A stretch of 64,000 bases of DNA from Firmicutes bacterium UBA5389 (lineage in GTDB: Bacteria; Bacillota; DTU025), in contig DHON01000105.1 in assembly GCA_002409965.1 (NCBI GenBank), positions 5,461 to 69,460 of the forward strand. The letters are read 5' to 3'. The notes beneath the pieces are model-generated. The model was not told the DNA's origin, searched no databases, and saw nothing but the letters and a program-made list of their open reading frames with translations. Made by a program: the position numbers and the translations under genes. Below, one piece after another: positions 6,306 to 39,751 of this stretch (the first letter of the stretch is position 1; the number at the start of each line of letters is the position of its first letter).

Positions 6306-6309
6306 TCTC

Positions 6310-6385
6310 TACTTGCCAAACAGACCCAGCGACTCGCAGGAGTCCTCCATGATGCAGTTGCTCGATGCGACAAGACTGAACGGTC
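6310..6385 (-). pseudogene. Remnant of a DegT/WbpE-type aminotransferase, a ~25-codon mosaic with an internal deletion
   Basis: The minus strand reads PFSLVASSNCIMEDSCESLGLFGK*. This joins two motifs of the 25.5-26.8 kb DegT gene (PFSFIASSNCI ... EDSCESLGS). Nucleotide identity by eye is ~30/33 and ~26/30 over those two blocks. It ends at a TAG immediately 5' of the GTG start of the helicase-C ORF and in the same frame. Confidence 0.5.
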
Positions 6386-6571
6386 GGCTGTGTGAACACC
6401 ACAAAAGGCGGCGCCCACGTGGAACTGCGGCGTTAACGTTCAGCAGTGTTGCCAATGTGGCGCAAATGTCGGAAGCGCTGGGATGAGTGAGGAGCCTATA
6501 GAGGGTTCAGGGGGGGCCTGGACCCTAGGGGAATCGCAGCGGCAGTTTACGCCACTTGACAAGACCTGACC

Positions 6572-7537
6572 TCAAGATCGGCGTACGTGCCTTCCAATCG
6601 CTTCAACCGCCAGGTCGGCGAGGAACTGGGATCCGGATCCGATCTCCATCAGCTCACGCATGGCGTCTACCTGGCTGGAGTCATCCAGGAACGATGCAAG
6701 GGCGCAGTGATTCCTAGTCCCCACTGAGACCACTACATAGAGATAGCTGACGTGGTCTCTGTCGCTCCGACCAACCTTGAACCTGACCACGTATGCATCA
6801 CCCTCCGGGCTCAGCACGAGCACGCTGCGGTATCCTCCATCCCACCAACAACCCCTGATGCGTCCCAGAGGTCTGGTACCTATGCCCATGTCCTCCATGA
6901 ACGTGTGTCCGCGCCATTCAAACGGCTCGGTGAACACTGCCGAATTCGAGCCAATGAGTTCATGCAAGCGCCCTGCAGGTTCCGTCGCGTCCGGATCGCT
7001 GAACGTGCCAGACGATAGCAAATGAGCGCTTTCGCCGCCACTACTATAGGGCTGGTCTGCCAATTGCCCTAAACCGCACTGACATTGCTCCATATTCAGC
7101 TGGCCAAAGTGTGGCAGTTCATCTACAGGTGTTTTGCTGTGACGATAGTGATCCATCATCCAGGCCTTTACTGCCCGCCCGTTGGTCAACGCCATATAGC
7201 GTGCTCCCGTAGCTGTGCAATAGCCGAAAGCTTGCTCTTCATGGGCGACAGTCAGCGAAACGCCCTGCTTCTTGCATTCCACAACCATCAACGCACACTG
7301 CGCCTTCGCCGGCTTCACGAGGATGTCCGCTCTCTGCCCGCTCCCGTCCTGCAGAGGAATCTCAGTATGAATCCATGAAGACGGATATCCATACTCCTGC
7401 ATGAGCGTCTCGACGGCATTGTGCCTGACCTTCTCCTCACCAGTTAGGCGCACGAGCCTCTGACGGCTGCGGTCAAGCCAGTATTTCCTCCTGCCGCAGC
7501 GATACGTGGAGCGCCCGTCCCAGTTCCCTATGATCAT
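6572..7537 (-). CDS. PD-(D/E)xK nuclease-like protein of 321 aa (HsdR-N / Mrr-like N-terminal domain)
   Basis: 'EIPLQDGSGQRADILV...CALMVVECKKQG' fits the D...E-x-K pattern of type I R-subunit N-terminal / restriction-endonuclease-like domains. It lies 8 nt downstream of the Dna2-like gene on the same strand. Confidence 0.5.
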   Translation of the reverse strand: MIIGNWDGRSTYRCGRRKYWLDRSRQRLVRLTGEEKVRHNAVETLMQEYGYPSSWIHTEIPLQDGSGQRADILVKPAKAQCALMVVECKKQGVSLTVAHEEQAFGYCTATGARYMALTNGRAVKAWMMDHYRHSKTPVDELPHFGQLNMEQCQCGLGQLADQPYSSGGESAHLLSSGTFSDPDATEPAGRLHELIGSNSAVFTEPFEWRGHTFMEDMGIGTRPLGRIRGCWWDGGYRSVLVLSPEGDAYVVRFKVGRSDRDHVSYLYVVVSVGTRNHCALASFLDDSSQVDAMRELMEIGSGSQFLADLAVEAIGRHVRRS

Positions 7538-7544
7538 ACGTCGG

Positions 7545-10500
7545 TCACCGCCTGTACACCGCCAGCCGCGTGCCTTCGGGATGCATGTCGCACTTGACTG
7601 TGAAGTCCAGGGCCTGGCCTGCGGCAGTGTGCATTCCGAGCCTGCGCATCATGCCGGCGCCCATTGCAGTCTCAGGGTTTTCCAGTACAGATAAACAAGG
7701 CTTGAGCAATGGACGTGGGACGAACACTATACATTTCGACTTGGCTCTTGTAACGGCAACGTTGAAGCGGTTAAGACTGTATATGAACTCGCCCTCGATC
7801 ATAGCGCATTCCGGGTCGGCCAGGCCGTAGCTGACGATGACGACTTCACACTCCTGCCCCTGCATCTTGTCGACGGTGTCGACGAAGTGCGGCGCGCGCA
7901 GGTTGCGTCTGTCCAGCTCCTGTTTGATGGCGGATATCTGCGCGTGATGGGGCGACACGATGAACAGGCCCCGCTGCCAGAACGCCGCATCCCCGGCCAT
8001 GGTGTCGGGGAATGGGCGATTCGTGCTCTCGTCCTTCAGGCGTCTGCGCAGTTCGCATGTGAGTTCCGCCACGAGCTCTGCCTCGGCCCAGTTTGCCGCG
8101 CCTGTCTGGACATCCTCCAGCACGCACATTGTCCATGAATAGGCGGGATCGATCACGGTTTCGACCCACTGGCGTTCAGTGCGCGAGCCAGCCGAACCAC
8201 GTCTTGCCGAGCCGCCGGCTGAGCGCGGCGCGGCAATGGGCATTCGCCTCTCCCCTACTCTTTCGTTGGCGCTACGGTATCCGGGTCCGTACAGACAATC
8301 TGCGCTGAAGCTGCACAACGACGTGTTCATGCGGAAGTTCTCCAGCAGCTGGCAGGTAATCGTGTTGGCCTCACGGTCGTGCTCGCGAACAGCCTCGAAC
8401 ACTGAGCGATGAAGCACCGGTTCGTCTGGGCCGACCTCAGGATACACGCCATTAATGATTGGCGAAAGCTGTTTGTCGTCTCCGGCGATGATTAGGCGGC
8501 CCGCCGGCGACAGCCGGGAGATGGCCAGCAGTGACTCGGCCGCTTTGACCTGGGAGCCTTCGTCGATCACCACTGCGTCGAACGGGCGCGGCCCGGGCTG
8601 TGACCTAAACGCCTTGAGCATGGAGTACACGGTGCCGCCCACAATGCACTGCTCATTCCGCCCGATGAACCCCATCGCCCCGTCACGATCGATACAGTCA
8701 ATGCCTTCGCAACCCTGGGTGTAGACAGGCCCGAGCTTTGCGAGCGGAGCATCATCCTGATCCATGCCGAGATCCTCCCGGAGCGAATCTATCTTTCGCA
8801 GACAGTTCTCAATGGCGGCATGGGTAAAGGCTGTGACCAATATGCGCATGGGTCTGCGCGCGCGGGTCGCCGCCTCCAGCAGTGTCAGGACTGCAAGGGC
8901 TAGGAAGTGTGTCTTCCCGGTACCCGGAGGACCCCATACAAGCGTCAGTTGGTTGTCGATGATGTGGCTGAGCGCGTCTAGCTGGCTGTCTGTGAAGCGA
9001 TCCCGCCGCTCTCTGCGCTTCAGGAGCCTCTCGATCTCTTTGCGGACAGGGCCCTTTAGAGCTGTCCTTGGCCCAAGAAGGGAGTGCGGCGACGTGAGCA
9101 CAGTGGTGGCCGGGGCGGCGCCGGACTGGTCGATCTCGCGCAGACGCCCGATCACTCTGTCGGTGTTGAAGTCCGTGAACGCTGGGTGCAGCAGATAACG
9201 CCTCCCCGGCACGATGTTGGGAGACTCGGGGCCAGGCTTGATTCTCAGGGTGAAACGGCGGCGGTCGCCCTCGACCTCGATCTCCCCGCAGATCTCGGCG
9301 AAGGCCAGCGCCGCGTTCTTCGGAACGAACCACTTGTTCCGCCACCTGTAGTCGGCGAAGCGCATCTGCGCCATCTCGCCGTCCTCGGAATCCTCGGTGA
9401 GCAGAAGACGCCACTGGCCGACCAGCTGTTCGATCTCTGGCGACGTTGTTACGAAGATACCCTCCCCGGCGGCGACTATGGGTATGGTAGTCCCCGCCCT
9501 TTCCCTTTCGAGACGGGTGAGCGTGCGCACATTGCGAATACTCAGATAATCCATGACGCTTTCATATCTGGTCATGAAAGCTAGCCGTGAAAGCACTGGG
9601 TCACTGAAGTCATCAGGCATGGGCATGCGGAATTTGGGCGGCCAAGCGAAGAGGTTGTCGGCGTGGTCACGGATTCGGTCCACCACATTTCGAGCTGCCC
9701 ATAATCGAATCCTCAAGCGGCGCCCTATCCGTTCCACATAGTCTGACTTACCACGATACCACACGTCGAATATGGCGTCGGACTTCAGCCTGTTGGAGAA
9801 GGCGAAGTCCCAGTAGGCGTCAACCTCATAGCTGAACGAATCGCTGCTATCCTCGTCGTTGAAAGCCGCGAGCACGTCACCCAGCTGGTAGGCCACAGCG
9901 ATGGGCATTTGGAAGAGTCGACGGATCACCGACGTGAGCGCCACAAGAGGGGAATCCGCAGTCTCATCCGGGCGCTCTTCGGTCGACATGAGATCCTCGC
10001 TCTGAAAATGAAACAGCAGAGCCAGAGCTTCCTCCGCCACATCTGGATCAGACAGCGCTTCCAGCAGGAGTTCCCTGAGCAGATCGGCTTCATACGAATC
10101 GAAGACATATGTCTGAAGCGACTTCTTGTCCTTCCACTCGCTGTGTGCGGCATTGTAGTCGTCAAGTTCCTGGAAGACCTCGTAGAGCGCCAGCACGAAG
10201 TCGCGCCTCACGTCCTCGCACTCATCGGGGCACGACGCTACGAACTGCCGGGCGTCGTAGCTGTCGGCAGAGAACACCTCATTGCTGCCGGTGCGGAGTA
10301 GACCTGCAGCGTATGTCAAACCCGATACAGGCTCGCGCTGCAGTGTCAACACCAGGCGAACGTTCTCGCCGCGGGGCATGGCAGGTGTGGCGCCGCCGGA
10401 CGCCACGACTTCGTCGGTGGTCAAGGCCTCGACTGCGTACTCCAGTTTCTCCTCTTGCCCGCCCAAAGTGGCCGAACCGTCGAGGATGCTGGGGGCATCC

Positions 10501-11369
10501 GCCCGCCTGAGGAATGCTGCCAAATCCGCAAGGGTATCAACGCCGTTATCTCTCAACAGACTGCGGCCCGCGGTAGTCAGATACGGAACCAGGGACACAC
10601 TCTGAGTTTCTTTGGCCTCTTCCCAGCAGTGTTCGAAATACTCACACCACTCGCACCTGTAGTTGAGGTGCCACGGCGCCTCAAGAGGATCGCACGACGT
10701 GATGCGGGGCAGCTCAACTCGGAGGAATTCCATCACGTAGAGCCTTATGGGTTCCTCGTCGAATACCTCGGGAGAGTCGGCTCCATATAGCCAGATGGCG
10801 GAGTCCTCGTATGACAGCTCTCCTGCGATACCCTGCGAATCCAGCACATGCTGCAGAATCAGCGCATACAGGCAGGTCTGCACCTTGTGCGACGTCTTCA
10901 GAGCGTCGGACGCCTTGACATCAATGACGCGGAAGGCGCGCTTGCGCCCCGGCAGGCGTTGTATGAGGTCAGGCCTGCATTGGCCGAACGACACCTCTTT
11001 CGGGTTCAGGTTGTAGTCCTCATAGAAGGACGGTGGGGCCTTCAGTGTGGCCTGGTAGAGGTATTCGCCGCTCTTCATCTGAGCCAGGCACCTGAGGCCG
11101 TCGCGCACCTCGAAGGTTCTCTCAGTAACGCGCTGATCGCCCGGGCCCGGCGCGATATGAACCTTGCCCGCGATCCTCTCCTCAATCACCTGCTGTTCCC
11201 ACTCGTACCCTCCCTGCAAGATAGCCCTGGTCACAGGGGAGTGATCGTACGGCGGGACGTAGATTCCGCGCCGGCGCTTCTCATCCTTGGCAATCGATCC
11301 AAACAGCAAGCATCGGTCACATTCGTGGTAGAAATGGCGAGCGATGCGAGACGGCGATAGTGAGTACAA
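7545..11369 (-). CDS. Dna2-like nuclease-helicase of 1274 aa: N-terminal Cas4/RecB-type PD-(D/E)xK nuclease with a Cys cluster, C-terminal SF1 Upf1/DNA2-family (AAA_11/AAA_12) helicase
   Basis: N-terminal region: 'FRVIDVKASD' and 'CLYALIL', plus 'YRCEWCEYFEHCW' (the C-x2-C-x5-C of Cas4/AddB-type Fe-S nucleases). Helicase motifs: 'LVWGPPGTGKTHFLA' (Walker A), 'AVVIDEGSQV' (motif II), 'DDKQLSPI', 'VDKMQGQECEVVIVS' and 'NVAVTRAKSKCIVF'. Confidence 0.8.
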   Translation of the reverse strand: MYSLSPSRIARHFYHECDRCLLFGSIAKDEKRRRGIYVPPYDHSPVTRAILQGGYEWEQQVIEERIAGKVHIAPGPGDQRVTERTFEVRDGLRCLAQMKSGEYLYQATLKAPPSFYEDYNLNPKEVSFGQCRPDLIQRLPGRKRAFRVIDVKASDALKTSHKVQTCLYALILQHVLDSQGIAGELSYEDSAIWLYGADSPEVFDEEPIRLYVMEFLRVELPRITSCDPLEAPWHLNYRCEWCEYFEHCWEEAKETQSVSLVPYLTTAGRSLLRDNGVDTLADLAAFLRRADAPSILDGSATLGGQEEKLEYAVEALTTDEVVASGGATPAMPRGENVRLVLTLQREPVSGLTYAAGLLRTGSNEVFSADSYDARQFVASCPDECEDVRRDFVLALYEVFQELDDYNAAHSEWKDKKSLQTYVFDSYEADLLRELLLEALSDPDVAEEALALLFHFQSEDLMSTEERPDETADSPLVALTSVIRRLFQMPIAVAYQLGDVLAAFNDEDSSDSFSYEVDAYWDFAFSNRLKSDAIFDVWYRGKSDYVERIGRRLRIRLWAARNVVDRIRDHADNLFAWPPKFRMPMPDDFSDPVLSRLAFMTRYESVMDYLSIRNVRTLTRLERERAGTTIPIVAAGEGIFVTTSPEIEQLVGQWRLLLTEDSEDGEMAQMRFADYRWRNKWFVPKNAALAFAEICGEIEVEGDRRRFTLRIKPGPESPNIVPGRRYLLHPAFTDFNTDRVIGRLREIDQSGAAPATTVLTSPHSLLGPRTALKGPVRKEIERLLKRRERRDRFTDSQLDALSHIIDNQLTLVWGPPGTGKTHFLALAVLTLLEAATRARRPMRILVTAFTHAAIENCLRKIDSLREDLGMDQDDAPLAKLGPVYTQGCEGIDCIDRDGAMGFIGRNEQCIVGGTVYSMLKAFRSQPGPRPFDAVVIDEGSQVKAAESLLAISRLSPAGRLIIAGDDKQLSPIINGVYPEVGPDEPVLHRSVFEAVREHDREANTITCQLLENFRMNTSLCSFSADCLYGPGYRSANERVGERRMPIAAPRSAGGSARRGSAGSRTERQWVETVIDPAYSWTMCVLEDVQTGAANWAEAELVAELTCELRRRLKDESTNRPFPDTMAGDAAFWQRGLFIVSPHHAQISAIKQELDRRNLRAPHFVDTVDKMQGQECEVVIVSYGLADPECAMIEGEFIYSLNRFNVAVTRAKSKCIVFVPRPLLKPCLSVLENPETAMGAGMMRRLGMHTAAGQALDFTVKCDMHPEGTRLAVYRR

Positions 11370-11460
11370 TACAGACTACCTCCCAAGCACTTCAGCGCGG
11401 ACACCGCGGGGCTCAACCCTCTACCGTCCGTTCCCTCCGCGGTAGATGTTGCCGCTGGGA

Positions 11461-11754
11461 TCATGCCGTTCCACGTGTTGCTTCTCGGTATCGCGCAAGT
11501 CGTCCTTTCTCGCAGACGGCTTGGCCTCGCCAAACTATCCACTGCTTCTTCGGATCGAGCCTTCCCGAGCGTACATGCTGCTGCTGCCTAACCCGAAGAT
11601 CCTCGGTCTGCCCGATGTACTTAATCTCGCCCGTCCTCTTGTCGATGTGCCTGTAGACACCCGGAGCATTCGGAATGGGACACTCCGAACCCTCGGTCTG
11701 GTCGGTCTTCTTCATGCGACCCGGTGGGATCGCTGACTTCTTGCCGCAAGACAT
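11461..11754 (-). CDS. Small GIY-YIG nuclease-domain protein (YhbQ/UPF0213-like)
   Basis: 'GVYRHIDKRTGEIKYIGQTEDLRVRQQQH' fits GIY-(x9-11)-YIG...R...H spacing. The true start may be an internal Met. Confidence 0.6.
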   Translation of the reverse strand: MSCGKKSAIPPGRMKKTDQTEGSECPIPNAPGVYRHIDKRTGEIKYIGQTEDLRVRQQQHVRSGRLDPKKQWIVWRGQAVCEKGRLARYREATRGTA

Positions 11755-11843
11755 ATCTCAGTCCTCCCGATTGGCGAATCTGCTATGGAGAGCAGAGTAA
11801 GCCGGATACTCTTGTGATTGCAGCGTCCATCTGCATACCTGCT

Positions 11844-12482
11844 CTAGTTGCCTAACAAGTCTTCGAGGATCAGCAACGCGGCAAGAGTCCTATTGAACAC
11901 CCTACGTGCCGTGCCCCACCCCGATGCTCTGAATTCCTCTTCATCTCTCTCGTACTTGTCTATTAGCGCGCTCATCTCTTGCTCACGTTGCTTCTCCGCA
12001 TCCAGCAGGGGCGTCTCCACCGGCTTCTCGATCCCAAACACCGCATTCAGTCGTGCTATCACCTGCCCAACCGGCTCATCGCCGTCTAGTTCATCCACTA
12101 TGTAGCTGCACCCATCCACAGTCTTGACATACGCGACCTCGTACTTTACCTCCCTATCAACAGGCCCGTTCTTGGCGATCGCCGGGTGATCTATCTGCTC
12201 GGTGAATGTCTGGTATGCGATGCCGTAGCTCCGGATCGTGGATGTTCTTATCACGTCCTTGCCCACCTGAACAAAGGCCGGGCATGCGTCCGCGATTATG
12301 TGCACCTTGATCGCTTTGGCTCCTTTGGGACTGCTCTCCGCCTCAAACTCGACTCTGGCACCTACTTCAGGCAGTTCTGGCGGCTGCACGTCGCTCACGT
12401 GGAAAAAGTACTTCTTGCCTTCGTAGTCATAGATGAACCCGAATCCGCGATCAGGAAAGTACTTTCTGATTATGCCACGCAT
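11844..12482 (-). CDS. Cold-shock-domain (CSD/OB) protein with a ~140-aa C-terminal extension of unknown function
   Basis: N-terminus 'RGIIRKYFPDRGFGFIYDYEGKKYFFHVSDV' matches the CspA-type RNP1/RNP2 pattern (GxVKWFNxxKGFGFI...DVFVHxS). Confidence 0.65.
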   Translation of the reverse strand: MRGIIRKYFPDRGFGFIYDYEGKKYFFHVSDVQPPELPEVGARVEFEAESSPKGAKAIKVHIIADACPAFVQVGKDVIRTSTIRSYGIAYQTFTEQIDHPAIAKNGPVDREVKYEVAYVKTVDGCSYIVDELDGDEPVGQVIARLNAVFGIEKPVETPLLDAEKQREQEMSALIDKYERDEEEFRASGWGTARRVFNRTLAALLILEDLLGN

Positions 12483-16272: not shown

Positions 16273-16275
16273 TAT

Positions 16276-17424
16276 CTATGCCCCACCCTCAACAGCACTC
16301 AATTCTAGCGACTTTCGCGCAGTTTTGATGGCTGAACCAATCTCGGGCGTAAGAGCACCATTCTCGTCTAGCATAGGAACTGCAAACAAGGCGTTTATCG
16401 CCTTAGTCATCTGAGCCATTTCGTATATCGTCTGCTTGTCCTCATCTGCATAAGCATCGTATACCGCACCCTTTTCCTGGATTACGCAATCGGCCTCTGT
16501 GATGAGTTCCTTAAGCCTGTTTCCCATACTTCCTGCTACACGAGAATAACTGCCTGCAACGCTCCTAATGCCTCGAAGCGCCGTTTCAGCGTTGCGCATC
16601 TCCTCTGCTGCTATCTTTGCCCTATAATAGGCTGACCGAGCCCCGTCTTTATTAGCCTCAGCCTTGCTATACGCAACGATACTTCCAACCATCAGGGCTG
16701 GCCCTGCCGCCAATCCTCCAAGTATGGCAACTCCGCCTGCCATCCCCAACCCACCGGCTGCAAGCGAGCCGCCGCCGATATAGGCCAGCGTTGCGTTTTT
16801 AGCTGTAACGCCCACCAGACCAGCGATTTTCGTGCCAGTAGAAGCGGTGCCTATGAGAGCCGCAGTTCCATATGTAGCCATCCCCACGAAAACGCCACTC
16901 GTTCCTGTAGCTAGGGCTCCTGAAAGTGCCTGGGCACCCAAATTCGACGTGTGCGCAATACTAGTACGCTCTGAATCTGCAATAGTGTCAACTGCTGCCC
17001 GAATCTCAGCCGGGAGTTCTCCCCGCTCTACCGATTTCTCAAAGATCAACATGACCTCTGTAAATCGTTGGAACTGATCCTTGGCGATCCTTGCTTTCTT
17101 ACGCCCGAGCGATACTAGAGCCTTTTGCGTCCGTACTCGCTCATCTTCAAGAGCCCCCCTGGCGCTGTCGAAGACACGTTCGCCCTCGTCCGCAGCGTGA
17201 TGGCCTGCTCGATGAGACCGGCGTCGGTATTCCGATCCTGCCCATCGACGACCTGGCGTTTCGTGAACTCGTGCAGCCTGGCAGATGTTATGCGCAGGTC
17301 GGGGAGCGGCCTTCAGTCCTTCAGCCCCTGTCAGACAAGATGTTGCTGGTTGCGTCCTGGTGGGCGGAACCCTCCCACCACGCCGGAGCCCCGCTAACAA
17401 ACGCGCGACGGACGCGAGTCTCAA
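16276..17424 (-). CDS. Glycine-zipper membrane-associated protein (ORF of 382 aa; true start probably internal, e.g. GTG near 17.1-17.2 kb)
   Basis: It has 'GTSGVFVGMATYGTAALIGTASTGTKIAGLVGVTAKNATLAYIGGGSLAAGGLGMAGGVAILGGLAAGPALMVGSIVAY', which contains repeated GxxxG/A motifs. The 5' ~100 nt overlap the J-domain ORF end (17321). Confidence 0.5.
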   Translation of the reverse strand: MRLASVARLLAGLRRGGRVPPTRTQPATSCLTGAEGLKAAPRPAHNICQAARVHETPGRRWAGSEYRRRSHRAGHHAADEGERVFDSARGALEDERVRTQKALVSLGRKKARIAKDQFQRFTEVMLIFEKSVERGELPAEIRAAVDTIADSERTSIAHTSNLGAQALSGALATGTSGVFVGMATYGTAALIGTASTGTKIAGLVGVTAKNATLAYIGGGSLAAGGLGMAGGVAILGGLAAGPALMVGSIVAYSKAEANKDGARSAYYRAKIAAEEMRNAETALRGIRSVAGSYSRVAGSMGNRLKELITEADCVIQEKGAVYDAYADEDKQTIYEMAQMTKAINALFAVPMLDENGALTPEIGSAIKTARKSLELSAVEGGA

Positions 17425-19642
17425 TTGTTATTCCTCCCGGAGCAGCATAGACGCGCCGAATCGGATCCCGGGTAACTACACTACCAGAGTAGGTGCCGTC
17501 CTCGCAGAACCAGCGGAAGCGTCTATTCTCGAGTAGTCCAAAACCGGTCTGCGCCACAATCAAGTCGCCACCGTCAAATGTGTCGATGATCGCATGGAGC
17601 GTTTCGTCTTTCAGAACATAGAGACGAGTATCCGTTAGGATGTAGAGATAGTCGCCCGTATCGACGATGCGACGTGGAACAGATCCGATACCATAGGCTC
17701 GAACAGGTTCTCCGGACTCGGTCACCATGACGACTCGACCCGAGTAGCCTGCGAGGAATGTCGCATCCGACCAACCGGCGAAGCTCGCGGCGTAGATCCA
17801 ATCGGCAGCATGGATTTCGCTCACAACGAGAGAAGCCGTAAGTGTTAGCCTACGTCCGCCTGCTTCTGTCTCACTCCGGCTCATCTCCCGGGCGTAATAC
17901 GCGCCAGCGTACGCTGGCAAAGCGTTCTGATCAATGCCAGTGATCAACTCCACAGCCAAATTGAGTTCCTTCATCCGTTCCGTTGCCTTGGGGTCATGAG
18001 GATTGCGATCCGGATGCCATTCCTTGGCTAGTTGCCGATAGCGGTTCTTCACATCCTCTTGAGTGAAGGGACATGATAGCCCAATGAGCGATAATGCCTG
18101 TTGAACATCGCTACTCGTCCCGAACTTCTCGCTGCGTTCGGGAACCCGGGTCCACCCATCGGTGATCGGAAGTCTTGTACCCCAGCGAGCCCTCCCGTCT
18201 ACTCCCACGCACCACGCCTCATCGACGGCAGTGAAGAGATAGCGACTGCCGTCGCGGGACAGCGCAACGCACCGGATATGGTTTTTCAATTCATCATTGC
18301 GGATGTCGAAGCGCTTTCGGATCGCCCGAATCTCTGGAGCATCCCACAGAGCTGTCTCCAGGGTCAGCTCCAACATGTCATCATAAGCATGAACTACGCA
18401 GTCTCTAGACATAGCGATCAGTCCTCGGCCCATCGGGTTTACATTGATCCGATACACGTCGTGGAGTAGGGGCTTCTTGGCGATCAGCTCGCCCGCACGA
18501 TCATAGCGGATGACAGCTGCGGGAACCTGGCCCATGCCCCCTGCCTTTCCGAGATCGTCTACCATCAGCAAGCCCGAATCCAGAGGGTGAAGCCGCCTGA
18601 ACGCGGTGTCAGGCCTCTCCCCCGTCGGAATCTTGTCGATCGCCTCAATCCGCCATCCATCCGCACCGCGAACCTCGAAGTGGTCGTTAGCCGCAGGGAC
18701 AGCAGCCGCCGCGCCTCGCACCTGCGCCTCCTCCCACCGGAGAGGGGATCTTGGAAGCGGTACGTAAGGCATATCTGCCGCGCTAATCTCGTGAAGCTGT
18801 GGCCGGTTACGGTCGGTGCGATGGGAGCCCACAGTCCGCTTTCGCACAGGCGATGATGCCGGTGCCGCCTCAGCAGGCCAGATTACGTATGTGTTGCCGT
18901 GCTTGTCACGCGTAATCTTGCCTGCCTTCTCGAGCCAGGTGATTAAGTCGGATATGCGGCGCCCGTCTGTCATGCCAACGAACGCCTTCACGTCCGCTTG
19001 ATGGCAACCCGGGTTCTGTCGCACAGCCTCCAAGATGGCTGCGAAGAGCTTGCGGCTCTCCTCGTGAGCTTTGACCGTGTCCGTCCATGCCTCAAGCTCC
19101 CGATTCGACGCAACGATTCGCTGCATCTCAGTGAGACCCTCGTCATCCCCCATTAACGCGAGCATCGTGCCGCCAACCTCAAGCGCAGGGATCGAGGAGA
19201 CGGCAGACGAACCGAGCGATTGCTTCATGCAACGTACGAACCCCGGTACTTGAGGCAGGTTCTCACGTGCCAGCCTAGCGGCGCGTGCATAGTCCCGCCT
19301 TGAAATGGCCAGCTGCATGTCTCCCATGGTGTGGAAGTAAGCATCCGTTCCCCGCGCATCGCCCATGACGCTCAGGTGTGTACAATCGGTGGGCCTGGAG
19401 GCGGCACACGGGCTCAAGGTTGAAGGAGGGTCTGAATCGCGAACTCTATCTGCCAAGTGGGCCGCAGGTTGCCTGGGGGAGAGCCCTAACAGCCGTCCGA
19501 GAAACTTAAGCACGGTGACCACCTCAAATCGAGACTTCTCGAGACCAGGGAGCGCGTTGGTACTTGGCACCCACTCCCAAAGTGCCAGCGCGATGCTCAT
19601 GAGCGAGCCAGCCGAGGTTGCCGCTACGCAGCCCGAGAACAC
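17321..19642 (-). CDS. J-domain (DnaJ-like, HPD motif) protein with a winged-helix-like segment and beta-propeller-like (PQQ/WD-like) repeats; probable start at 19366 or 19327 rather than 19642
   Basis: J-domain: 'EDVKNRYRQLAKEWHPDRNPHDPKATERMKELNLAVELI'. wHTH-like segment: 'ADVKAFVGMTDGRRISDLITWLEKAGKITRDKHGNTYVIW'. C-terminal repeats such as 'GDYLYILTDTRLYVLKD'. In-frame ATGs give MGDARG (19366) and MGDMQLAIS (19327). Confidence 0.6.
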   Translation of the reverse strand: MFSGCVAATSAGSLMSIALALWEWVPSTNALPGLEKSRFEVVTVLKFLGRLLGLSPRQPAAHLADRVRDSDPPSTLSPCAASRPTDCTHLSVMGDARGTDAYFHTMGDMQLAISRRDYARAARLARENLPQVPGFVRCMKQSLGSSAVSSIPALEVGGTMLALMGDDEGLTEMQRIVASNRELEAWTDTVKAHEESRKLFAAILEAVRQNPGCHQADVKAFVGMTDGRRISDLITWLEKAGKITRDKHGNTYVIWPAEAAPASSPVRKRTVGSHRTDRNRPQLHEISAADMPYVPLPRSPLRWEEAQVRGAAAAVPAANDHFEVRGADGWRIEAIDKIPTGERPDTAFRRLHPLDSGLLMVDDLGKAGGMGQVPAAVIRYDRAGELIAKKPLLHDVYRINVNPMGRGLIAMSRDCVVHAYDDMLELTLETALWDAPEIRAIRKRFDIRNDELKNHIRCVALSRDGSRYLFTAVDEAWCVGVDGRARWGTRLPITDGWTRVPERSEKFGTSSDVQQALSLIGLSCPFTQEDVKNRYRQLAKEWHPDRNPHDPKATERMKELNLAVELITGIDQNALPAYAGAYYAREMSRSETEAGGRRLTLTASLVVSEIHAADWIYAASFAGWSDATFLAGYSGRVVMVTESGEPVRAYGIGSVPRRIVDTGDYLYILTDTRLYVLKDETLHAIIDTFDGGDLIVAQTGFGLLENRRFRWFCEDGTYSGSVVTRDPIRRVYAAPGGITIETRVRRAFVSGAPAWWEGSAHQDATSNILSDRG

Positions 19643-20053
19643 CGAGCCGAGCCTAGCGAGGTCTAGTAGGCCGGGCAGCCTCCTATCGCAGCCCTGCGCG
19701 CGTGCACCACGGATGCTGTATGCCTGATCGCCGCCTCAGTTACCCTGAGCCCGAACCCCCACGCTCCGGGGTTTCGAACTGGCATGAGCTCTCACTGGAG
19801 CCTAGCACCCGCACCTAAAGGTCGCCTACTGTACACCGCGAGAATCTGCAAGGATCCTGTAGCGCGATGGCTCGCTCTACAGACCGATGCCCACGTTCGC
19901 CGGGTCCAACTCACTGCCGGCAAGCGCCAGTGTCCGTATCTCACACCAGGCGCGAATCGAGCTTTCGCTGTCGCGGCTCGACCCGTATGGCGGCCAGAGA
20001 TCATGGACTGACGGCCATCGGAATCCTCCAGCGAAGCAAGAACGCTGACCACA

Positions 20054-22480
20054 CTAGCTTGCCGTCGCCGCTCCGAGGCAGGATGCTGCTAGCTTGGCCT
20101 GCGTACCGCTGGCGCTCGCACACCAAGCAGTCAGGTTCGGCTCAGCGTCTGGCAGATGGGACAGTACGTGTGCTTTATTGAGGCGATACATGAAGCACAA
20201 GATGTCCTTTGCTGTGCGTTTCTTCTCGTCCGATGACAAGTGGCCAAAGAAGCTCTTTTCGGGGGCTCCTTGGATACTCTCCATAAAGTGGCTCTCACCA
20301 TGGAGGACTAATCGATACATCAAGTTCCGGTAGTACATTCTTGACTCATCATCTGGTAGCAGAGCCAACACTCGCTCATCCAGGCTGACCTCTACAACCC
20401 CTTTCTTGAACGAAAAGGAGGCAAAAGCCTCTAGCACTCTTCTCATCATGTTTCCGATCACCAGGTCGGAGTCGAGATCAGCCGCAGTGCCCGCAGCATA
20501 CTCGTAAACCTTTTGAAGCAACCGGGTGTACTCGTTGTGTCTCTCATGCTGGAAACCGGACAACGACCTGCCATCAAGCTGAAACGGGCGATATTCCATG
20601 TTGACTGCTGTCTGCTTGCAGCGTTTCTTTACTTCGTCCAGCATCTTCTCCATATCGAACATCACGCTCAGGTCGTGAGTCATGACCAAGACCCTGCTAG
20701 TTGGGCAGCCAACGAGGACTTGTTCGAGTCTCCACCTCAAGAACGAGAGTATCCCGATTCTGTTCTCCAAATCGAAGCTCGAGATAGGATCGTCAATCAC
20801 CAATAACATCTCGTCGGAATATACCGCCTTGACGTCCATGTCCTTCGCTGCCTCTGCAAAGAAATAGCAGAGAGCAATTACGTTCCTTTCGCCGCAAGAC
20901 ACCTTGTTGGGACTGATGGGCTGCCCGTTTGCCCTTAGGTGATAGACTCCGTCAGATCCCAGTTCTAGCGAGAGCCGCCCCCGGCAGAAGAAGACGTAGT
21001 CCAGCGACCTGTTTATCTCCTCAGCAGCAATATGGAGGTTTCTTCGCTGCGAGTCCAGAAACGTCCTCTTGCGCTCCAGTTCCGCGAGGCTTGCTCTCAT
21101 TTGACGCAACTGGTCGTCTGCGATCCGCTTCGCCGTTCGTTGCTTTTGGAGCGAGGCGTACATACTCTCGATTGTCCAGTGGGCAATCTCGTCATTGAGA
21201 ACCAGAAGTTCGTTCTTCACAGCAGCCCTCTCACTGAGAGTGCGGTTGAAACTCACTCGATCGGCCTCCAACGAGGCTAGCGCCCGATTCAACGCATCGT
21301 GAGCCGCTGCCACACCGATAGAGTCGTCATACACCATCTTCCCGAAAGGACTATTGATCTTCGCTGTGACAGCATCGTTGTGAGCAGCGACCGCAGTGTT
21401 GTAGTCACTGAGCCGCTCCAGTACACAGCCACATGATTGTAGGTCACGGTAAACCTGATATGTACCGGTCACCGCTTCAGGAATCAGCAACCGCTCAAGC
21501 TCACCCGTGAACTCGTCAACATCACGGTTCAGAATACGCTCGATACGTCCGAGAGCTTCGACTCGGTACTCATCCCTTATCGGCTGAAGGCATTTATCGC
21601 AGACAGTATGCTTCGGATCAGAAAGAAGCGCTCTCGCGCTGGTTATGACCGTAACCCCAAATAGGTCCAGCAGACTCTGTTCTCTGTCCGTCAATTGCGG
21701 TCTCTCAACTACCTTATCAAGAAGCAGTCTTGCCCTCTCGATGACATCATTGACAGCAGGCACTAGTGCGACTCCTGTGGCAATCGGCGTTGATGCGGCA
21801 CTGACTGCGAGGTACTGCGGAAGCCGGCGACTCAACTCACCATGGAGATCTGCCGGAGACCCCGTCGAGGGCATCTTCCCAATTCTTCCGATCTCAGCAT
21901 CGGTAACCGAGAGATTCTGTCTCTGCCCCTTGATCCTTGAGCCAACGTCAGCCCATCCATTGGCTTCGCGAAGTCTGCTGTGAATCTGCGCGAGCCAGTA
22001 GTCTGGCGAGTTGACGTCACTCTTGTTCGTGAATCGCACGCATGCAGTCTCCTGATTGGACACCTCCGCTACCATGGCCTCGATGAGCTTCTCTGTCTCT
22101 GCGATTTGGTCCTCTATAGCTACCTGCTCGCCAAAGAGCACAATCGCGTCCAGTCCCGAGCCTTTGACCTTTACACGAGACGAGACGTATTCTTCATCGA
22201 ACACAAGGATCTTCTCGGGTTTCGCCGTAGAAGCGGCTCCGAGGCGAAGAGTGCCCATCATGGGCTCCAGTGTGACGGTTCGAGGATTGGCCGCATCCCT
22301 GTACTCGCGGAAACCCTGCGCAATCGTGCTTTTCCCGCTTCCGTTCTTCCCATACACAAGGGCTACACGTTTGCGCTTGTGTGACTTTGAATCCTCCGGA
22401 AACAGCTCTAGTGACGTAGTGCTAGAGAAATAGGCAGAGGATATGGTCACTCCTGTCATGCTCCCAATCGTGGTCACCAC
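20054..22480 (-). CDS. AAA_13 / RloC-PrrC-like ABC ATPase of 808 aa with a coiled-coil insertion carrying a CxxC (zinc-hook-like) motif and a C-terminal ~240-aa domain (candidate anticodon-nuclease-like)
   Basis: Walker A 'VYGKNGSGKSTIAQGF'; the coiled-coil middle carries 'CDKCLQPI'; Walker B 'MLLVIDDPISSFD'. Confidence 0.6.
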   Translation of the reverse strand: MVTTIGSMTGVTISSAYFSSTTSLELFPEDSKSHKRKRVALVYGKNGSGKSTIAQGFREYRDAANPRTVTLEPMMGTLRLGAASTAKPEKILVFDEEYVSSRVKVKGSGLDAIVLFGEQVAIEDQIAETEKLIEAMVAEVSNQETACVRFTNKSDVNSPDYWLAQIHSRLREANGWADVGSRIKGQRQNLSVTDAEIGRIGKMPSTGSPADLHGELSRRLPQYLAVSAASTPIATGVALVPAVNDVIERARLLLDKVVERPQLTDREQSLLDLFGVTVITSARALLSDPKHTVCDKCLQPIRDEYRVEALGRIERILNRDVDEFTGELERLLIPEAVTGTYQVYRDLQSCGCVLERLSDYNTAVAAHNDAVTAKINSPFGKMVYDDSIGVAAAHDALNRALASLEADRVSFNRTLSERAAVKNELLVLNDEIAHWTIESMYASLQKQRTAKRIADDQLRQMRASLAELERKRTFLDSQRRNLHIAAEEINRSLDYVFFCRGRLSLELGSDGVYHLRANGQPISPNKVSCGERNVIALCYFFAEAAKDMDVKAVYSDEMLLVIDDPISSFDLENRIGILSFLRWRLEQVLVGCPTSRVLVMTHDLSVMFDMEKMLDEVKKRCKQTAVNMEYRPFQLDGRSLSGFQHERHNEYTRLLQKVYEYAAGTAADLDSDLVIGNMMRRVLEAFASFSFKKGVVEVSLDERVLALLPDDESRMYYRNLMYRLVLHGESHFMESIQGAPEKSFFGHLSSDEKKRTAKDILCFMYRLNKAHVLSHLPDAEPNLTAWCASASGTQAKLAASCLGAATAS

Positions 22481-22653
22481 GATGACCCCCTACTACCCGC
22501 GTTTTCGACTGTCTATCCACACCTCACTAATGGTCCGTTAATGGTCTGTTCCATCTGCCTGCGATCCAGCCGCTGCACTGCCCTGGGATTGGGCCACGGG
22601 ACGCGCCTCTGGAATGCTCAGTACTCCCCAGTGGAGTGCTCTCGCCCGTAGAA

Positions 22654-22725
22654 TCACTCCCGCACTGCCTCCTCCAGCATCCCCGCGACATACTCCACCT
22701 CGTGCGCGGTGATCTTGTTGCGTTG
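22654..22725 (-). pseudogene. Short C-terminal remnant of a second DegT-type aminotransferase
   Basis: The minus strand reads '...KITAHEVEYVAGMLEEAVRE*'. The intact DegT-type ORF ends '...RITEEEVEYVAGVLEGALGERG'. The remnant is diverged from the 25.5 kb copy (roughly 70 % nt identity by eye). Confidence 0.35.
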
Positions 22726-22992
22726 CTCAGGACATGTGTCCACAGAACCCCGCGTTCCGGCTTCCCGTCGATCGAAAGCTTCCAGATCACGGTTTCTCAG
22801 TGCCCAGCCTAATCGCTCAAGGATGCGAACCGAGTCCCTTTCGCCCCCCAGACTGCGCGGAGGGGCCAAACACGTTGTGCGCGTTACCGGTATATCGGAT
22901 CGTGCATACCCCGGCAGACGCAACGATGCACCGAGTATGCACGGTTGCGGCGATCCGGCCTCTCCCCAGATTCGATGCCTGGTTCAACGTCA

Positions 22993-23418
22993 TTACTTTG
23001 CACCGCTGAGGCCGCGCATTTTGCTGATGGCAGCAGATGATCCTGCCAGGGAGAACTTGAAGTAGACCATCCCCTCACCGAACCAGTTCAACTCAAGCGG
23101 CATGGTGTCAGATCCGGCGATCCTCGAGATCGCTGACTTGCCGTCTGAAAAGTGGAGGAACTCAGAACCCCAGTCTTGACTCAGGGTAACGCTCTCCACC
23201 TTGTCATTCCACCTGATCCTGGTTTGGATGAGGTTGTACCCATTCTTGATCGTCGTGTTCACGATATTGGGTGCGTTGCTGAAAGCGATGTAAGCCCATT
23301 CGCTCTTGCCATCACAACCTACGTTCAGCATCGCCGTCGTATCATGGTACGGAAAACTCATCTTCTCAACCGAAGCGGTGGCAGGGGAATGAGCGTAGTA
23401 GCTCTTCGCACCGGTCAT
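22993..23418 (-). CDS. Hypothetical 141-aa protein; likely the mature domain of a secreted protein whose signal peptide (23447-23523) is separated from it by an in-frame TGA
   Basis: A strong SD (AGGAGGG) lies 5 nt before ATG 23523, giving MNMRRICTGVMIIVLMLTLGVSAAAQ-TGA(23444-23446). Eight in-frame codons then lead to the MTGAK start at 23418. Confidence 0.5.
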   Translation of the reverse strand: MTGAKSYYAHSPATASVEKMSFPYHDTTAMLNVGCDGKSEWAYIAFSNAPNIVNTTIKNGYNLIQTRIRWNDKVESVTLSQDWGSEFLHFSDGKSAISRIAGSDTMPLELNWFGEGMVYFKFSLAGSSAAISKMRGLSGAK

Positions 23419-23847
23419 CGGATCCTCCGAAACCGAGTTCGTTCATTGCGCCGCCGCAGACACACCGAGTGTCAGCATGAGAACGATGATCATCACGCCC
23501 GTGCAAATACGCCTCATATTCATGTGATTCCCTCCTATTTCGAATAGCCGAACGAACTCGGCGTCAAGCTTACCGAAAAGCTGCCCTGTCCGCTCTGTAT
23601 GCGTTTCCGCAAACTGAGAAGCCTCCAGTGCTGCCGAGTGAGCTGTACACAAAGCCTATAACAGGGCCCTATGGCGAAGACCTGCAGGCGTCGCACCAAG
23701 CGGCGCTCTTGGCGCGGTACGGTCACCGACTCGTTCGGGCGGTGACTCCGTGTCGCGGGCCAACAGTCACAGAGCAGTCGATCCTTGTACCAGCGGCGCC
23801 GTCCTCGGCTTGATAGGGCTTGGAGTCGGTCTGCCTGTTAGGCGTCT

Positions 23848-25053
23848 TCAGCGAGACTTGACCATCTTTATCCACTCGACCGATACCATTGGAATAGTCC
23901 GGGTAGCACCGAAGATCGTCGTGTATGAACACGGCTGCAGAATGGTTCCTGCGAAGTCGATGATGTCCTCCTCGACCAGACGAGTGCCTGCAGCTTCCCC
24001 ATCATCGTCGATTACGATGAACATGTCGTCCTCAGTGTACGATCCGAAGTAGCCCTTGCCCATCGCAACTCGGTAGGAGCCATCCCCGACGTCCTGAAGC
24101 ACCTCTCCCTGGCACCGAAGAGTCTTGCCTACGTAGTCCTCTGGTCTGCGAAGCAAGTCACCGTATGATTGCGATGACGAAGCCAGCAGCTTCTTGCGCC
24201 GTTCTGCGGCAAGCTCCTCCTTGTGCTTCGCGACCGCATCTAGTTTGGCAAGGGTTAGTCTCCTGATCTCAGCGTCTACCTCAAGTATGTTTCGTTCGAG
24301 CAGTAGCGCGTCCTTGGCTGAGCGGAGGTCGCGCTCCGGTTCAGACGTGTCTGTATTCCAGCTGGGCTTCATACCGAAGCGCCGCCTTGCGGCAGACACT
24401 ATCGGCTGATCATGGATATCCATCAGAGAGGCGGCTAGACTGTCGCATAGCTCCTTATCCGAGCTGTCGGCCAATGACTCGGAGATCTCTTGTATTCTCC
24501 TGATGCGAGCGAGAAGATCATCTGCAGATGTGTCGGTACCGACACAAGCCAGCTCTCTTGCTTCCTCGACCCGCAGTGAGGCCTGCTCTTTCTCTACGAG
24601 CGGCCCAAGCCTTTCGATCTCCGCCATTACGTCTGCCTTCAGCTGGCCTCCCAGCAGTACGGAGACCTCCTTGAGCTTAGCAGTATGAGCTGCATATCCC
24701 GAGCTAGGGCGACTGGCGAGGAGCCGTCTGGCCTCTGCCGCGGCCTCGCGGTTACCGGCGGTCAAGGCCAGCGCAACGAGGAGGAAGAGAAGCGACACCA
24801 ACAGCACGAGCCAGGCAAGCCAACGACGACGAATCCTGAGGGATGGAAGCACTCTACCTCGTATGTTGGCAATCGCCACATACAGACCCACTGCGCCCAG
24901 TAACCAGAAAGGTGCGCTCACCTGCGCATCACTCCTCATACGTACTCTGGTTGTCGTGTCTCCGACTACAACTCGGGCAGCCAACATAGTTCGTTTCTCT
25001 TTGGCCCTCGGCTTCAGTAGGGACACGCCGAAAACGCAGAGCCTTGACAACAA
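23848..25053 (-). CDS. Membrane-anchored coiled-coil protein of ~400 aa (start uncertain), function unknown
   Basis: N-terminal hydrophobic helices ('FWLLGAVGLYVAIANI', 'WLAWLVLLVSLLFLLVALALTA') are followed by a charged, helix-rich region and a C-terminal domain with no recognisable motif. Confidence 0.5.
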   Translation of the reverse strand: MLSRLCVFGVSLLKPRAKEKRTMLAARVVVGDTTTRVRMRSDAQVSAPFWLLGAVGLYVAIANIRGRVLPSLRIRRRWLAWLVLLVSLLFLLVALALTAGNREAAAEARRLLASRPSSGYAAHTAKLKEVSVLLGGQLKADVMAEIERLGPLVEKEQASLRVEEARELACVGTDTSADDLLARIRRIQEISESLADSSDKELCDSLAASLMDIHDQPIVSAARRRFGMKPSWNTDTSEPERDLRSAKDALLLERNILEVDAEIRRLTLAKLDAVAKHKEELAAERRKKLLASSSQSYGDLLRRPEDYVGKTLRCQGEVLQDVGDGSYRVAMGKGYFGSYTEDDMFIVIDDDGEAAGTRLVEEDIIDFAGTILQPCSYTTIFGATRTIPMVSVEWIKMVKSR

Positions 25054-25541
25054 GCTGGTGAATAGGGAAACAGCCCACTGTGCGGCAATTGAGTCGTAGG
25101 GGAGCAGTGGCAGTGATCACGTGCTTGAACAGTGCAGAGCTGTTATGAAGCAGCAGTTAATTGCATGAAGGGTGGGATGATGAGTTCGTTAACTGACTCG
25201 TTTACAGTATTCGCTAGTCGCTTCGCTTTTCCTCTGCAATCATCGGGGATGCATGAGGGAAGAGACCATTCTGTAGGGGCTGCACGACCGGGTGCGCGCC
25301 GCACATTCTCGATTGTCATTCACAGCCGACGCCGGCATCTTCGAACGTGATGCCGTCATCCATCTCCGCCTGACCGTTGAAGATGTCCGCGAGACCGCCG
25401 CCATGTCCGCGCCGAAGCATGCACTCCCGAGCCCTCAGCCCTTCAGCTGTGAAACGGTCGGCCTAGTACAGCCTACGGGCGGCGGACTCCCTGCCCGCCG
25501 CCCCGCCGCGAACCGCCTAGCGCAGTCTGATGCGTGGCCTC

Positions 25542-26782
25542 CTATCCCCGCTCCCCGAGCGCCCCCTCCAACACCCCCGCAACGTACTCGACCTCTTCCT
25601 CTGTAATCCTGTTATGGAACGGTATCGCCACACTCGTCCGCCCCACCGCCTCCATCACCGGGAAGTCGCCCTCCCTGTACCCGAACCGCTCGCGGTAGAA
25701 CGGCTGCAGATGAATGGGCGTGAAGTAAGGCCGGCACCCGATCCCCGCCTCCTGGAACCGCTGCATCACCCGGTCTCTCACCGCCTGCTGCGCCTCGGCC
25801 CCGGCCTCCTCGCACCCAACCCGGATCACATAGACGAACCAGCTCATGAAGTCTACCTCCGGCGCCACCCGCGGCACCCAGACCCCCTCTATCCTCAACA
25901 GCCGCTCGCGCCACATCTGGGCCACCCGCGCCCGCTTCTCGAGGATCTCCCCGATCCGCCCCATCTGCACCACGCCCAGCGCCGCCGACATCTCATCGAT
26001 CCGGTAGTTGTAGCCCAGCCTTTCATGCGCTAGCCACACCCCTGCCTCGCCCCTGCCCTGGTTCCGCATGCTGTTGCATAGCGCGGCGATGCGGTCGTCG
26101 TCGGTGACGATCATCCCGCCCTCGCCCGTGGTTATCTGCTTGTTGGGGTAGAACGCGAACACAGCGGCGTCCGCGAAGTCCGGTCCGCCGGCTTTCTTCC
26201 CATTGTAGACCGACCCCAGCGACTCGCACGAGTCCTCTATGAACACAAGACCATGCTTCCGCGCGATATCGCGTATCTCATCTAGACGTGCCGGCTGCCC
26301 GAACGCATCCACCGCCAGTACCGCCCTCGCCCTCGGCGTGATGGCCTGCTCAATGAGGTCGGCGTCCATGTTCGCCGTGTCGGGCTCGATGTCGACAAAC
26401 ACCGGCTTGGCTTTCTCATACAGGATGCAGTTGCTCGATGCGATGAAACTGAACGGCGTGGTGATTACCTCATCACCGTCAGAGATGCCGTACGCCCGGA
26501 TCAGCAGGTGAAGACCGCTAGTGCCGCTGTTCACCGCCATGCAAACATACATGAGTTGTCTTTCGACGAACGCTTCGGCATGCTGGTTGACCGGGAATGG
26601 GCTTGTCGGCAGGACAGGCGACTGACCCGCCTGCTCTCGGAACCACCGGATTCTTTGGCCCGGAACAGGCGGGCGATTTCATCGGAATACGCAGCCAACT
26701 CAAACGGGGCCGCGTTCAGTGAATTCTCCCACTGAGAATCCGGCACCAAGAACAGCAATGGGAAGTGGAGCGTACTAGCCAT
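25542..26782 (-). pseudogene. DegT/DnrJ/EryC1/StrS-family PLP-dependent sugar aminotransferase, disrupted by a 1-nt frameshift near 26650-26662
   Basis: The 83-aa ORF (26531-26782) gives the N-terminus ('...RLFRAKESGG'). The next frame continues '...WFREQAGQSPVLPTSPFPVNQHAEAFVERQLMYVCMAVNSGTSGLHL...' into the 336-aa ORF (25542-26552), which carries the DegT motifs EDSCESLGS, GEGGM and LHLQPFY. The frame switch is at 'tccggtggttcc'. Confidence 0.7.
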
Positions 26783-39726: not shown

Positions 39727-39751
39727 CGTATGACCTCCTCGGACAATGCAC

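Follow-up and report, generated by a model that had tools for sequence, protein, structure and literature searches.

In the hotspot model, cargo genes are turned over by recombination at a conserved flanking gene, without mobile-element machinery (Oliveira et al. 2017, PMC5635113). Hotspots of defence systems have been described in P. aeruginosa and E. coli (PMC10250203, PMC10121019). A related process is the deletional decay of bacterial pseudogenes and the erosion of defence and toxin-antitoxin loci, as described, for example, in PMC13617665. Here we compare these systems with a 64,000-nucleotide (nt) stretch of contig DHON01000105.1 (the window) from Firmicutes bacterium UBA5389, which belongs to an uncultured Bacillota-like lineage represented by metagenome contigs only. 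A defence island adjoins a polysaccharide locus in the window, and a DegT-type sugar aminotransferase gene at the border has left short pieces within the island. These pieces probably have no function and are fossils of repeated structural turnover at a defence hotspot bordering the distal end of the polysaccharide locus.

Several features correspond to the described hotspots. Defence cargo varies beside a fixed conserved flank, and no integrase is present in the region examined. Recombination of the flanking gene is raised, the synonymous divergence (dS) of the mosaic DegT copy being roughly tenfold that in the neighbouring cargo. Near-identical strains differ in gene content, at 26544 in contig L084 and upstream of 17178 in contigs L101 and L102. 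Unlike in the described hotspots, the flank is a glycan-biosynthesis gene that is itself destroyed rather than an intact conserved core gene, several fossil copies of it lie inside the island, and one flank only has been identified. Gene-content difference, flank recombination and absence of an integrase were found, whereas two conserved flanks and an empty site were not. The locus shares with deletional decay its colinear mosaics with internal deletions, truncated neighbours (ZacC′, M09A′ and an Upx fragment, described below) and independent deletions in related lineages. It differs in that the decaying sequences are extra copies of one gene, the positions of which allow an outside-in ordering. 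The phenomenon is a new, clear example of a known, ordinary process, with no new mechanism. On our best reading, the hotspot model needs two additions here: illegitimate joins that leave older copies of the flank behind, and later deletions that trim them.

The window contains one 5′-truncated DegT copy and three short remnants. All are in gene orientation, and each remnant lies at a breakpoint:

25542-26544, minus strand: main copy (DegT′) of the perosamine-synthetase-like sugar aminotransferase gene (PF01041), without its first ~49 codons; stop codon at 25542-25544
22657-22785, minus strand: 3′-end remnant of a second, more diverged DegT copy; core 22657-22719, own stop codon at 22654-22656
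17181-17232, minus strand: mid-gene DegT remnant, equivalent to main-copy positions 26322-26373 and to residues ~108-122 of an intact homolog
6325-6383, minus strand: two-block colinear DegT mosaic confirmed by self-comparison, translating as PFSLVASSNCIMEDSCESLG

At least the breakpoints at 26544 and 17178 are polymorphic among co-occurring strains, and the genes adjoining the 17.2-kb and 6.3-kb remnants are themselves 5′-truncated. Alleles that had diverged under purifying selection are combined as a mosaic in the 5′ half of DegT′, and the downstream cargo is nearly identical between lineages.

The 6.3-, 17.2- and 22.6-kb remnants are the top-ranked direct repeats of the whole island. Their nucleotide identity to the main copy and to the alleles of contigs L085, L086, L087 and L088 is 87-93%, compared with 56-61% to a DegT-family paralog in the window and a maximum of 73-86% over 80 other DegT loci. 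In local alignment they score 52, 60 and 46, whereas shuffled sequences average 20-23 (standard deviation ~2.5). At the protein level the remnants are too short for allele assignment, and nucleotide comparison was used instead. An earlier note on this DNA had reported DegT-type pieces. Sensitive self-comparison and the shuffle controls show that they are real, and the test against motifs conserved among pyridoxal phosphate (PLP) enzymes came out for a DegT origin. Chance similarity and assembly chimeras are ruled out by these controls and by independent contigs (L083, L103, L090-L095, L101/L102). The three remnant regions, when scanned, contained no promoter-like or terminator-like sites.

DegT′ matches PF01041 with an E value of 2.4e-102, covering profile positions 42-359 of 360 only, so that the whole domain of a functional member is not present. 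Intact homologs of 380-383 amino acids (aa) align to the window from residue 50 onward only, which corresponds to position 26540. Solved perosamine synthetases, the closest PDB structures, align with DegT′ from their residue ~57. The gene had been read earlier as a full-length copy with a 1-nt frameshift near 26655. A profile of the family's first 52 residues, run against six frames of the whole window, found the paralog at 59-61 kb (E 2.7e-7). Near 26.6 kb it found nothing, the DegT frame scoring no better than E 6.6, and the frame of an 83-aa open reading frame (ORF) at 26531-26782 was not among the top matches shown. This ORF gave no DegT or Pfam signal. A frameshifted full-length gene is ruled out, since the N-terminal profile finds the paralog only and the homologs align from residue 50. 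The gene is truncated at its 5′ end at 26544, and the 83-aa ORF had been misread as its N-terminus. Judged from its sequence, the main copy is a pseudogene or truncated gene, not FRAMESHIFTED. The stretch FAFYPNKQITTGEGG, the presumed site of the catalytic (PLP-binding) lysine, is present in DegT′ and conserved in homologs.

The truncation point coincides with the end of a block of defence genes:

26543-26545, no strand: junction at which island A, with its distal end, meets DegT codon ~50, placed by L084, L082 and homology to L089
26545-38708, minus strand: island A, the defence block between the formyltransferase gene and DegT′ (Pfam and PADLOC), containing UDG-like, 1334-aa STAND NTPase, Lamassu-like LmuA/MC3/LmuB, an Upx C-terminal fragment and small ORFs including the 83-aa ORF

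From 27500 to 26544, contig L084 agrees with the window at 100% identity; beyond this point it runs into a truncated istB gene of insertion sequence (IS) IS21. L082 stops at 26546, and homology to the intact DegT of L089 begins at ~26540. Position 26544 is a structural junction, because island A joins DegT in the window and other DNA in L084. It is not an error, as L083 reproduces the join exactly (100% identity). Island A is also present on the near-identical independent contigs L082 and L001.

At the L084 join (958-1080; sample ERZ724026), the distal end of island A meets the first ~30 codons of istB on the opposite strand. Comparison of this remnant with the IS21 remnants past the left end of the window (L090 18204-21631) gave no match, and it is a different copy. 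Within island A, a 162-aa ORF at 28345-28833 (possibly also 28739-29113) covers positions 1101-1252 of 1271 only of the PADLOC Upx model (E 4.5e-22), and is probably another truncated defence-gene remnant.

Sister loci L085, L086 and L088 share with the window the order DegT′, 401-aa gene, 141-aa gene, 22.6-kb remnant, AAA_13 and DnaJ, at 96-98% identity. In these loci DegT′ breaks off at ~26480-26497, where one or other of two unrelated sequences adjoins it upstream, and L085 and L086 carry an extra 186-nt deletion (25552-25737). In L087, DegT′ is cut at 26299 beside a truncated CpsB gene, and is followed first by AbiEi/AbiEii and then by a colinear DegT mosaic of three blocks. The differing cuts in the window, the sister loci and L087 indicate that DegT was broken repeatedly and independently in this clade, with defence cargo beside the breaks. 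The further deletions in L085/L086 and L087 argue that DegT′ is decaying.

The DegT′ cuts of L085 (~1700-1725) and L088 (~100-125) lie within ~15 nt of each other, and their upstream partners are wholly unrelated. This near-coincidence may stem either from repeated breaks at the same place or from replacement that extended as far as an older junction. In L087 (82-657), the CpsB/CapC phosphatase gene covers profile positions 78-233 of 234 only, and is apparently cut at the DegT′ junction.

The positions of the cuts bear on site-specific integration into DegT, in which an element would bring a replacement gene end and leave displaced target fragments in tandem arrays. Integrative elements leave such fragments in icd, with e14 and phage 21, and in tRNA-gene islands. 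The locus resembles them in having several same-orientation fragments of one gene, and a duplicated target-gene 3′ end downstream of inserted DNA: the 22.6-kb piece could be a displaced 3′ end, with a copy upstream of it that retains a 3′ end. Unlike in those elements, the fragments come from different parts of the gene rather than from one attachment site, and the junctions are specific to lineages (26544, ~26480-26497, 26299). ORFs of at least 110 aa across 1-39 kb, the large island ORFs among them, yielded no integrase or recombinase domain; the only mobile-element traces are IS remnants, which lie outside the DegT remnants. The repeat search of the island returned no attachment-like exact direct repeats. 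Since an integrase, a common site and a shared junction position are all missing, site-specific integration is highly improbable.

Sequence divergence within DegT′ points to homologous exchange. In comparisons of the window with the sister loci, DegT′ has a dS of 0.19-0.28 and the adjacent 401-aa gene one of 0.017-0.023. The divergence is concentrated in the 5′ half of DegT′, with 9-19% per 150 nt versus ~1% downstream. The odd-one-out lineage shifts along the gene, being L088 at 24 sites (26480-26266) and the window at 28 sites (26265-25966). A maximum chi-square breakpoint is located at 26301-26313, with a statistic of 28.6 that was reached by none of 2000 permutations. The high dS in DegT′ beside near-identical cargo indicates that diverged functional alleles were spliced onto nearly identical cargo. 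The dN/dS ratio between DegT′ alleles is 0.16-0.23, and the divergence probably predates the independent truncations.

The 22.6-kb remnant retains a gene end. Its translation NKITAHEVEYVAGMLEEAVRE, followed by the stop, is identical to NRITEEEVEYVAGVLEGALGE at 14/21 residues, with the stop in the homologous position (tblastn E 0.004). At the nucleotide level, 22667-22719 is identical to DegT at 40/53 positions (local score 46 versus 23.3 +/- 2.6 for shuffles), and a weaker extension reaches 22785. The diverged C-terminal scrap noted earlier at 22654-22725 is therefore borne out at both levels. An apparently intact AAA_13 (PDC-S06) gene follows 174 nt downstream of the remnant, which is also present in sister loci L085, L086 and L088.

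This arrangement is also what would be seen if DegT had never been resident, each block having arrived with a bit of its donor's DegT at the upstream end, so that the remnants are cassette ends. In the donors, DegT would then have stood immediately upstream of the blocks. Every remnant lies on the 5′ side of a block. The 22.6-kb remnant resembles a native DegT 3′ end followed by an intergenic region and AAA_13, and in L087 DegT′ directly precedes AbiEi/AbiEii. The unit of DegT′, 401-aa and 141-aa genes, AAA_13 and DnaJ is common to lineages with differing upstream contexts. For the 22.6-kb remnant this account overlaps with turnover at a resident gene. The other two remnants argue against it, as the genes beside them are truncated at the join, and the next junction allows a direct comparison:

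17178-17180, no strand: illegitimate junction between DegT-internal sequence and codon 42 of a PDC-M09A-like gene (three-way alignment)
16276-17178, minus strand: PDC-M09A-like gene (M09A′) without its first 41 codons (PADLOC PDC-M09A E 1e-19); first usable ATG at 17052

The 17.2-kb remnant is the strongest of the pieces and had been missed in the earlier note. Positions 17181-17225 match DegT 26322-26366 at 39/45 (blastn E 2e-9), and the repeat search extends the match to 52 nt at 83%. The L088 allele matches at 40/45, and the best of 80 other DegT loci reaches 73%. The source interval lies inside the stretch that the 6.3-kb mosaic skips. Contigs L101 (ENA) and L102 (JGI), which are independent, are 99.98% identical to the window from 17178 to 6276 and unrelated to it upstream. 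In the three-way alignment, DegT homology stops at 17181 and L101/L102 homology begins at 17178, leaving 2 nt unassigned between them. The window's join is real, since a third assembly, L103, is 100% identical to the window across 25642-14307.

L101 and L102 carry an intact M09A-like form (P0241) of 341 aa with a family-typical N-terminus (MP...); the family is ~335 aa long. It is preceded by a UvrD-DEDDh helicase gene and three small genes, and no DegT. The 17.2-kb remnant therefore did not travel with the M09A block, and an origin of the pieces as cassette ends is quite unlikely.

In the same contigs (L101 3-4360, L102 3-3367), the UvrD helicase contains an embedded DEDDh exonuclease (RTasHel/GajB-like, E 3e-167). 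The small genes encode a 150-aa protein with a weak prokaryotic-RING match, an 81-aa ORF and a TerB-like 142-aa protein. All of these are lost from the window.

The shared segments also decide on the ~19 kb between the 6.3-kb remnant and the 25.5-kb gene, which had been proposed to be a single insertion. It is subdivided by the 22.6- and 17.2-kb remnants, and a single insertion is refuted because L101/L102 share only 17178 to 6276 and the sister lineage only ~25.5 to 18 kb. The broader proposal of recombination-driven assembly holds in that the DegT pieces mark recombination or deletion junctions in a defence island adjoining a polysaccharide locus. It does not hold for the single insertion or for recombination between paralogous sugar-gene sequences: the in-window paralog is 35% identical to the studied DegT at the protein level and plays no part in the remnants, and the exchanges are between alleles of the same gene, together with illegitimate joins.

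The 6.3-kb remnant is located within a damaged defence operon:

6306-6571, no strand: 266-nt gap in place of ~7 kb of an Azaca-type operon, holding the DegT mosaic
3981-6305, minus strand: ZacC-like helicase remnant (ZacC′) of 774 aa, without the DEAD/ATP-binding N-terminal third (PADLOC ZacC E 5e-192)
6572-7537, minus strand: gene for an HSDR_N_2 protein (Pfam E 6.6e-19), counterpart of the first gene of a five-gene block in contig L096

ZacC′ covers positions 347-1016 of 1019 of the PADLOC ZacC profile. Nearly all of its 119 listed, non-identical homologs are ~1020-1150 aa long, and most contain both PF00270 (DEAD) and PF00271 (Helicase_C). The operon of L096 (240-10773) encodes consecutively HSDR_N_2, an 878-aa helicase resembling restriction endonucleases (REase-like), ZacA, ZacB and ZacC. 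The window's first gene is 56% identical to that of L096 over 315 aa, and residues 368-1119 of the L096 ZacC are 49% identical to the window; nothing corresponds in between. The REase-like helicase, ZacA, ZacB and the first ~367 codons of ZacC are lost from the window, where a complete Azaca system with full-length ZacC is consequently not found; all three Zac proteins are present in L096. The helicase-C ORF of the earlier note is thus the 3′ two-thirds of ZacC, and the 6.3-kb junction is a deletion scar in an Azaca-type operon, not a cassette boundary. Contigs L090-L095 and L101/L102 are 100% identical to the window across it. The Azaca-type system in the window is a shell, made of HSDR_N_2 and the C-terminal two-thirds of ZacC, and a system count based on the ZacC match would mislead.

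The mosaic itself consists of two colinear blocks on the same strand. Positions 6348-6383 match DegT 26421-26456 at 32/36, and 6325-6352 match 26215-26242 at 26/28. Between the blocks 183 nt are missing (61 codons, in frame), and they join at 2-5 nt of shared bases. A ~75-nt mosaic had been noted at 6310-6385 with ~210 nt missing; its two-block structure and strand are correct, its extent is 6325-6383, and the missing stretch is 183 nt. It was also said to be in frame with the GTG start of the helicase ORF. It does share the frame of the GTG at 6305, but is cut off from it by a TAG that stands two codons further upstream.

Short tracts of this kind could be templated filler. In such an event, 28-52-nt DegT tracts would be copied from a nearby DegT template into deletion junctions at a single stroke, by serial template switching (microhomology-mediated break-induced replication or fork stalling and template switching, MMBIR/FoSTeS). 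They would then not be relics of additional DegT copies that had once been complete. The tracts are very short and lie exactly at the junctions of large deletions, the ~7-kb loss between HSDR_N_2 and ZacC and the join at M09A codon 42. The shared bases at the 6.3-kb block join would fit a template switch, as would the origin of the 17.2-kb tract in the interval that the 6.3-kb mosaic skips, and a remnant inside one operon is awkward for accretion. However, the tracts are 7-13% off all sampled alleles, while a fresh copy would initially show no differences. The blocks are colinear and gene-oriented in both mosaics, including the independent three-block mosaic of L087, as progressive deletion predicts. 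The 22.6-kb remnant keeps a native stop and its spacing to an apparently intact gene, and so resembles the end of an original gene. No further templated pieces from the window or any of the fetched loci were found in the remainder of the 266-nt gap or in the sequence flanking the other remnants. Microhomology at switch points is 2-5 nt at the 6.3-kb block join and none at the 17178 join, with the tracts compared with present-day alleles only. As a general account templated filler is unlikely. One-step templated repair is a serious rival for the 6.3-kb remnant specifically.

Repeated turnover at the border of the polysaccharide locus probably proceeded as follows. DegT would be a resident gene flanking the hotspot. 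DNA from related strains would recombine homologously in or upstream of it, and the other side of the exchange may be homologous, resulting in replacement, or illegitimate. An illegitimate join would add a block, with part of an older DegT copy left behind further out. Deletions that came later, at junctions sharing little or no homology, would trim the redundant copies to colinear mosaics, and may run into neighbouring defence genes, as in ZacC′, M09A′ and the loss of ZacA and ZacB. The implied order, from the outside in, would be the 6.3-kb scar, the 17.2-kb join, the 22.6-kb remnant, the main copy, arriving with its 401-aa and 141-aa cargo, and island A. The 6.3-kb scar would be the oldest because it is common to both strain variants (the window and L101/L102), and island A the most recent, as each of the sampled lineages has a different junction there.

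A number of observations weigh against this explanation. Its weakest point is the location of the 6.3-kb remnant, which has on either side the first and the last gene of a block that is undivided in L096. Such a position is not expected from simple stepwise accretion and calls for an extra insertion or a complex event. The remnants differ by 7-13% from every sampled allele, so their source copies must be unsampled. The comparison sequences are metagenome contigs throughout. The earlier note had advised a search of related genomes for the empty site; none was found in the genome scan, the metagenome scan or protein searches. Nor was an intact DegT of this lineage found, the nearest intact homologs being at most 82% identical and in other contexts. 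The distal flank of the island was not reached, as six kb past the window there are still defence genes and IS remnants. The ancestral neighbourhood of DegT rests on the proximal flank:

38860-41082, minus strand: genes for PIG-L deacetylase, Bac_transf initiating transferase and formyltransferase, with which the intact part of the polysaccharide locus ends (Pfam)

DegT is absent after the formyltransferase in distant loci with this triad, and its ancestral adjacency is therefore assumed. A metagenome scan with the formyltransferase gave best matches of 52-70% identity, with no DegT downstream. In a genome scan with DegT, the nearest loci were metagenome-assembled genomes at 70-76% identity, in which DegT ends the glycan cluster or stands apart from it; these are uninformative at strain level. 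The intact 82% homolog (P0002) was tried as a guide to the empty site and rejected, its context being unrelated (DsbD/FtrD/ROK genes).

The triad is syntenic in ~20 unrelated metagenome contigs (L104-L124) at 51-70% identity. On the longer of these, FnlB/FnlC-like genes precede it and a CapD/WbpM-like dehydratase sometimes follows.

Every substantial gene of the window is on the minus strand. Proximal to island A is the polysaccharide locus:

38.8-64 kb, minus strand: polysaccharide locus with Asn-synthase-like, WbpB-like oxidoreductase, hexapeptide-acetyltransferase/DegT fusion, UDP-sugar dehydrogenase and Wzy genes
38.8-64 kb, minus strand: further genes of this locus, for glycosyltransferases, FnlA/B/C-like proteins, PIG-L deacetylase, Bac_transf initiating transferase and formyltransferase

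The fusion gene at 59285-61258 is the in-window paralog. Its 657-aa product joins two parts, a hexapeptide acetyltransferase and a second DegT-family aminotransferase, and is WbpD/WbpE-like in its domain content. Two other features had been listed earlier. The truncated epimerase at 41.1-41.7 kb could not be confirmed, since the ORF at 41079-41654 (191 aa) has no Pfam or PDB sequence match. The supposed IS1182 remnant at 51523-51822 gave only a weak DUF772 transposase match (E 0.032).

From 38.7 kb to the window start, Pfam and PADLOC detect defence-type genes and unknowns only. The order is UDG-like, 1334-aa STAND NTPase, Lamassu-like LmuA/MC3/LmuB, Upx C-terminal fragment and DegT. These are followed by the 401-aa and 141-aa unknowns, AAA_13 (PDC-S06), a 773-aa J-domain protein and the PDC-M09A-like gene, and then by NYN and cold-shock-domain proteins, a Cas4-SF1 helicase, HSDR_N_2, the ZacC-like helicase and SIR2. 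Longer contigs continue beyond the window's left end with an SMC-like ATPase, IS21 remnants and a transposase. The AAA_13 ATPase (PADLOC candidate PDC-S06, 808 aa) and the 773-aa protein form a pair at 17321-22480 that is kept in the sister lineage. The sole recognisable domain of the latter is the J-domain (DnaJ, E 2e-11), and in L085 the gene caller split its ORF into 473 aa and a further ORF. Between the Cas4-SF1 helicase and cold-shock-domain genes, a 97-aa ORF (11461-11754) has a borderline GIY-YIG nuclease match (E 1e-4) and is consistently called by gene callers in other contigs.

A further possibility, which we regard as unlikely, is that DegT and its remnants serve as a portable homology handle that moves defence blocks between strains without mobile-element machinery, hits to the glycan gene being themselves favoured. 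Each defence block would then carry, or lie next to, part of a widely shared glycan gene, and this sequence would direct homologous recombination. If this were true, loss of the 4-amino sugar would alter the phage receptor as new defence genes arrive.

Independently of such a role, the locus is an unusually legible record of the assembly and decay of a defence island without mobile-element genes. Its junctions are resolved to the nucleotide, states before and after an event are present in co-occurring variants, and fossil copies of the flank order the events. Because ZacC′, M09A′, the Upx fragment and DegT′ are truncated remnants, a simple count of defence systems would overstate the functional content of the island.

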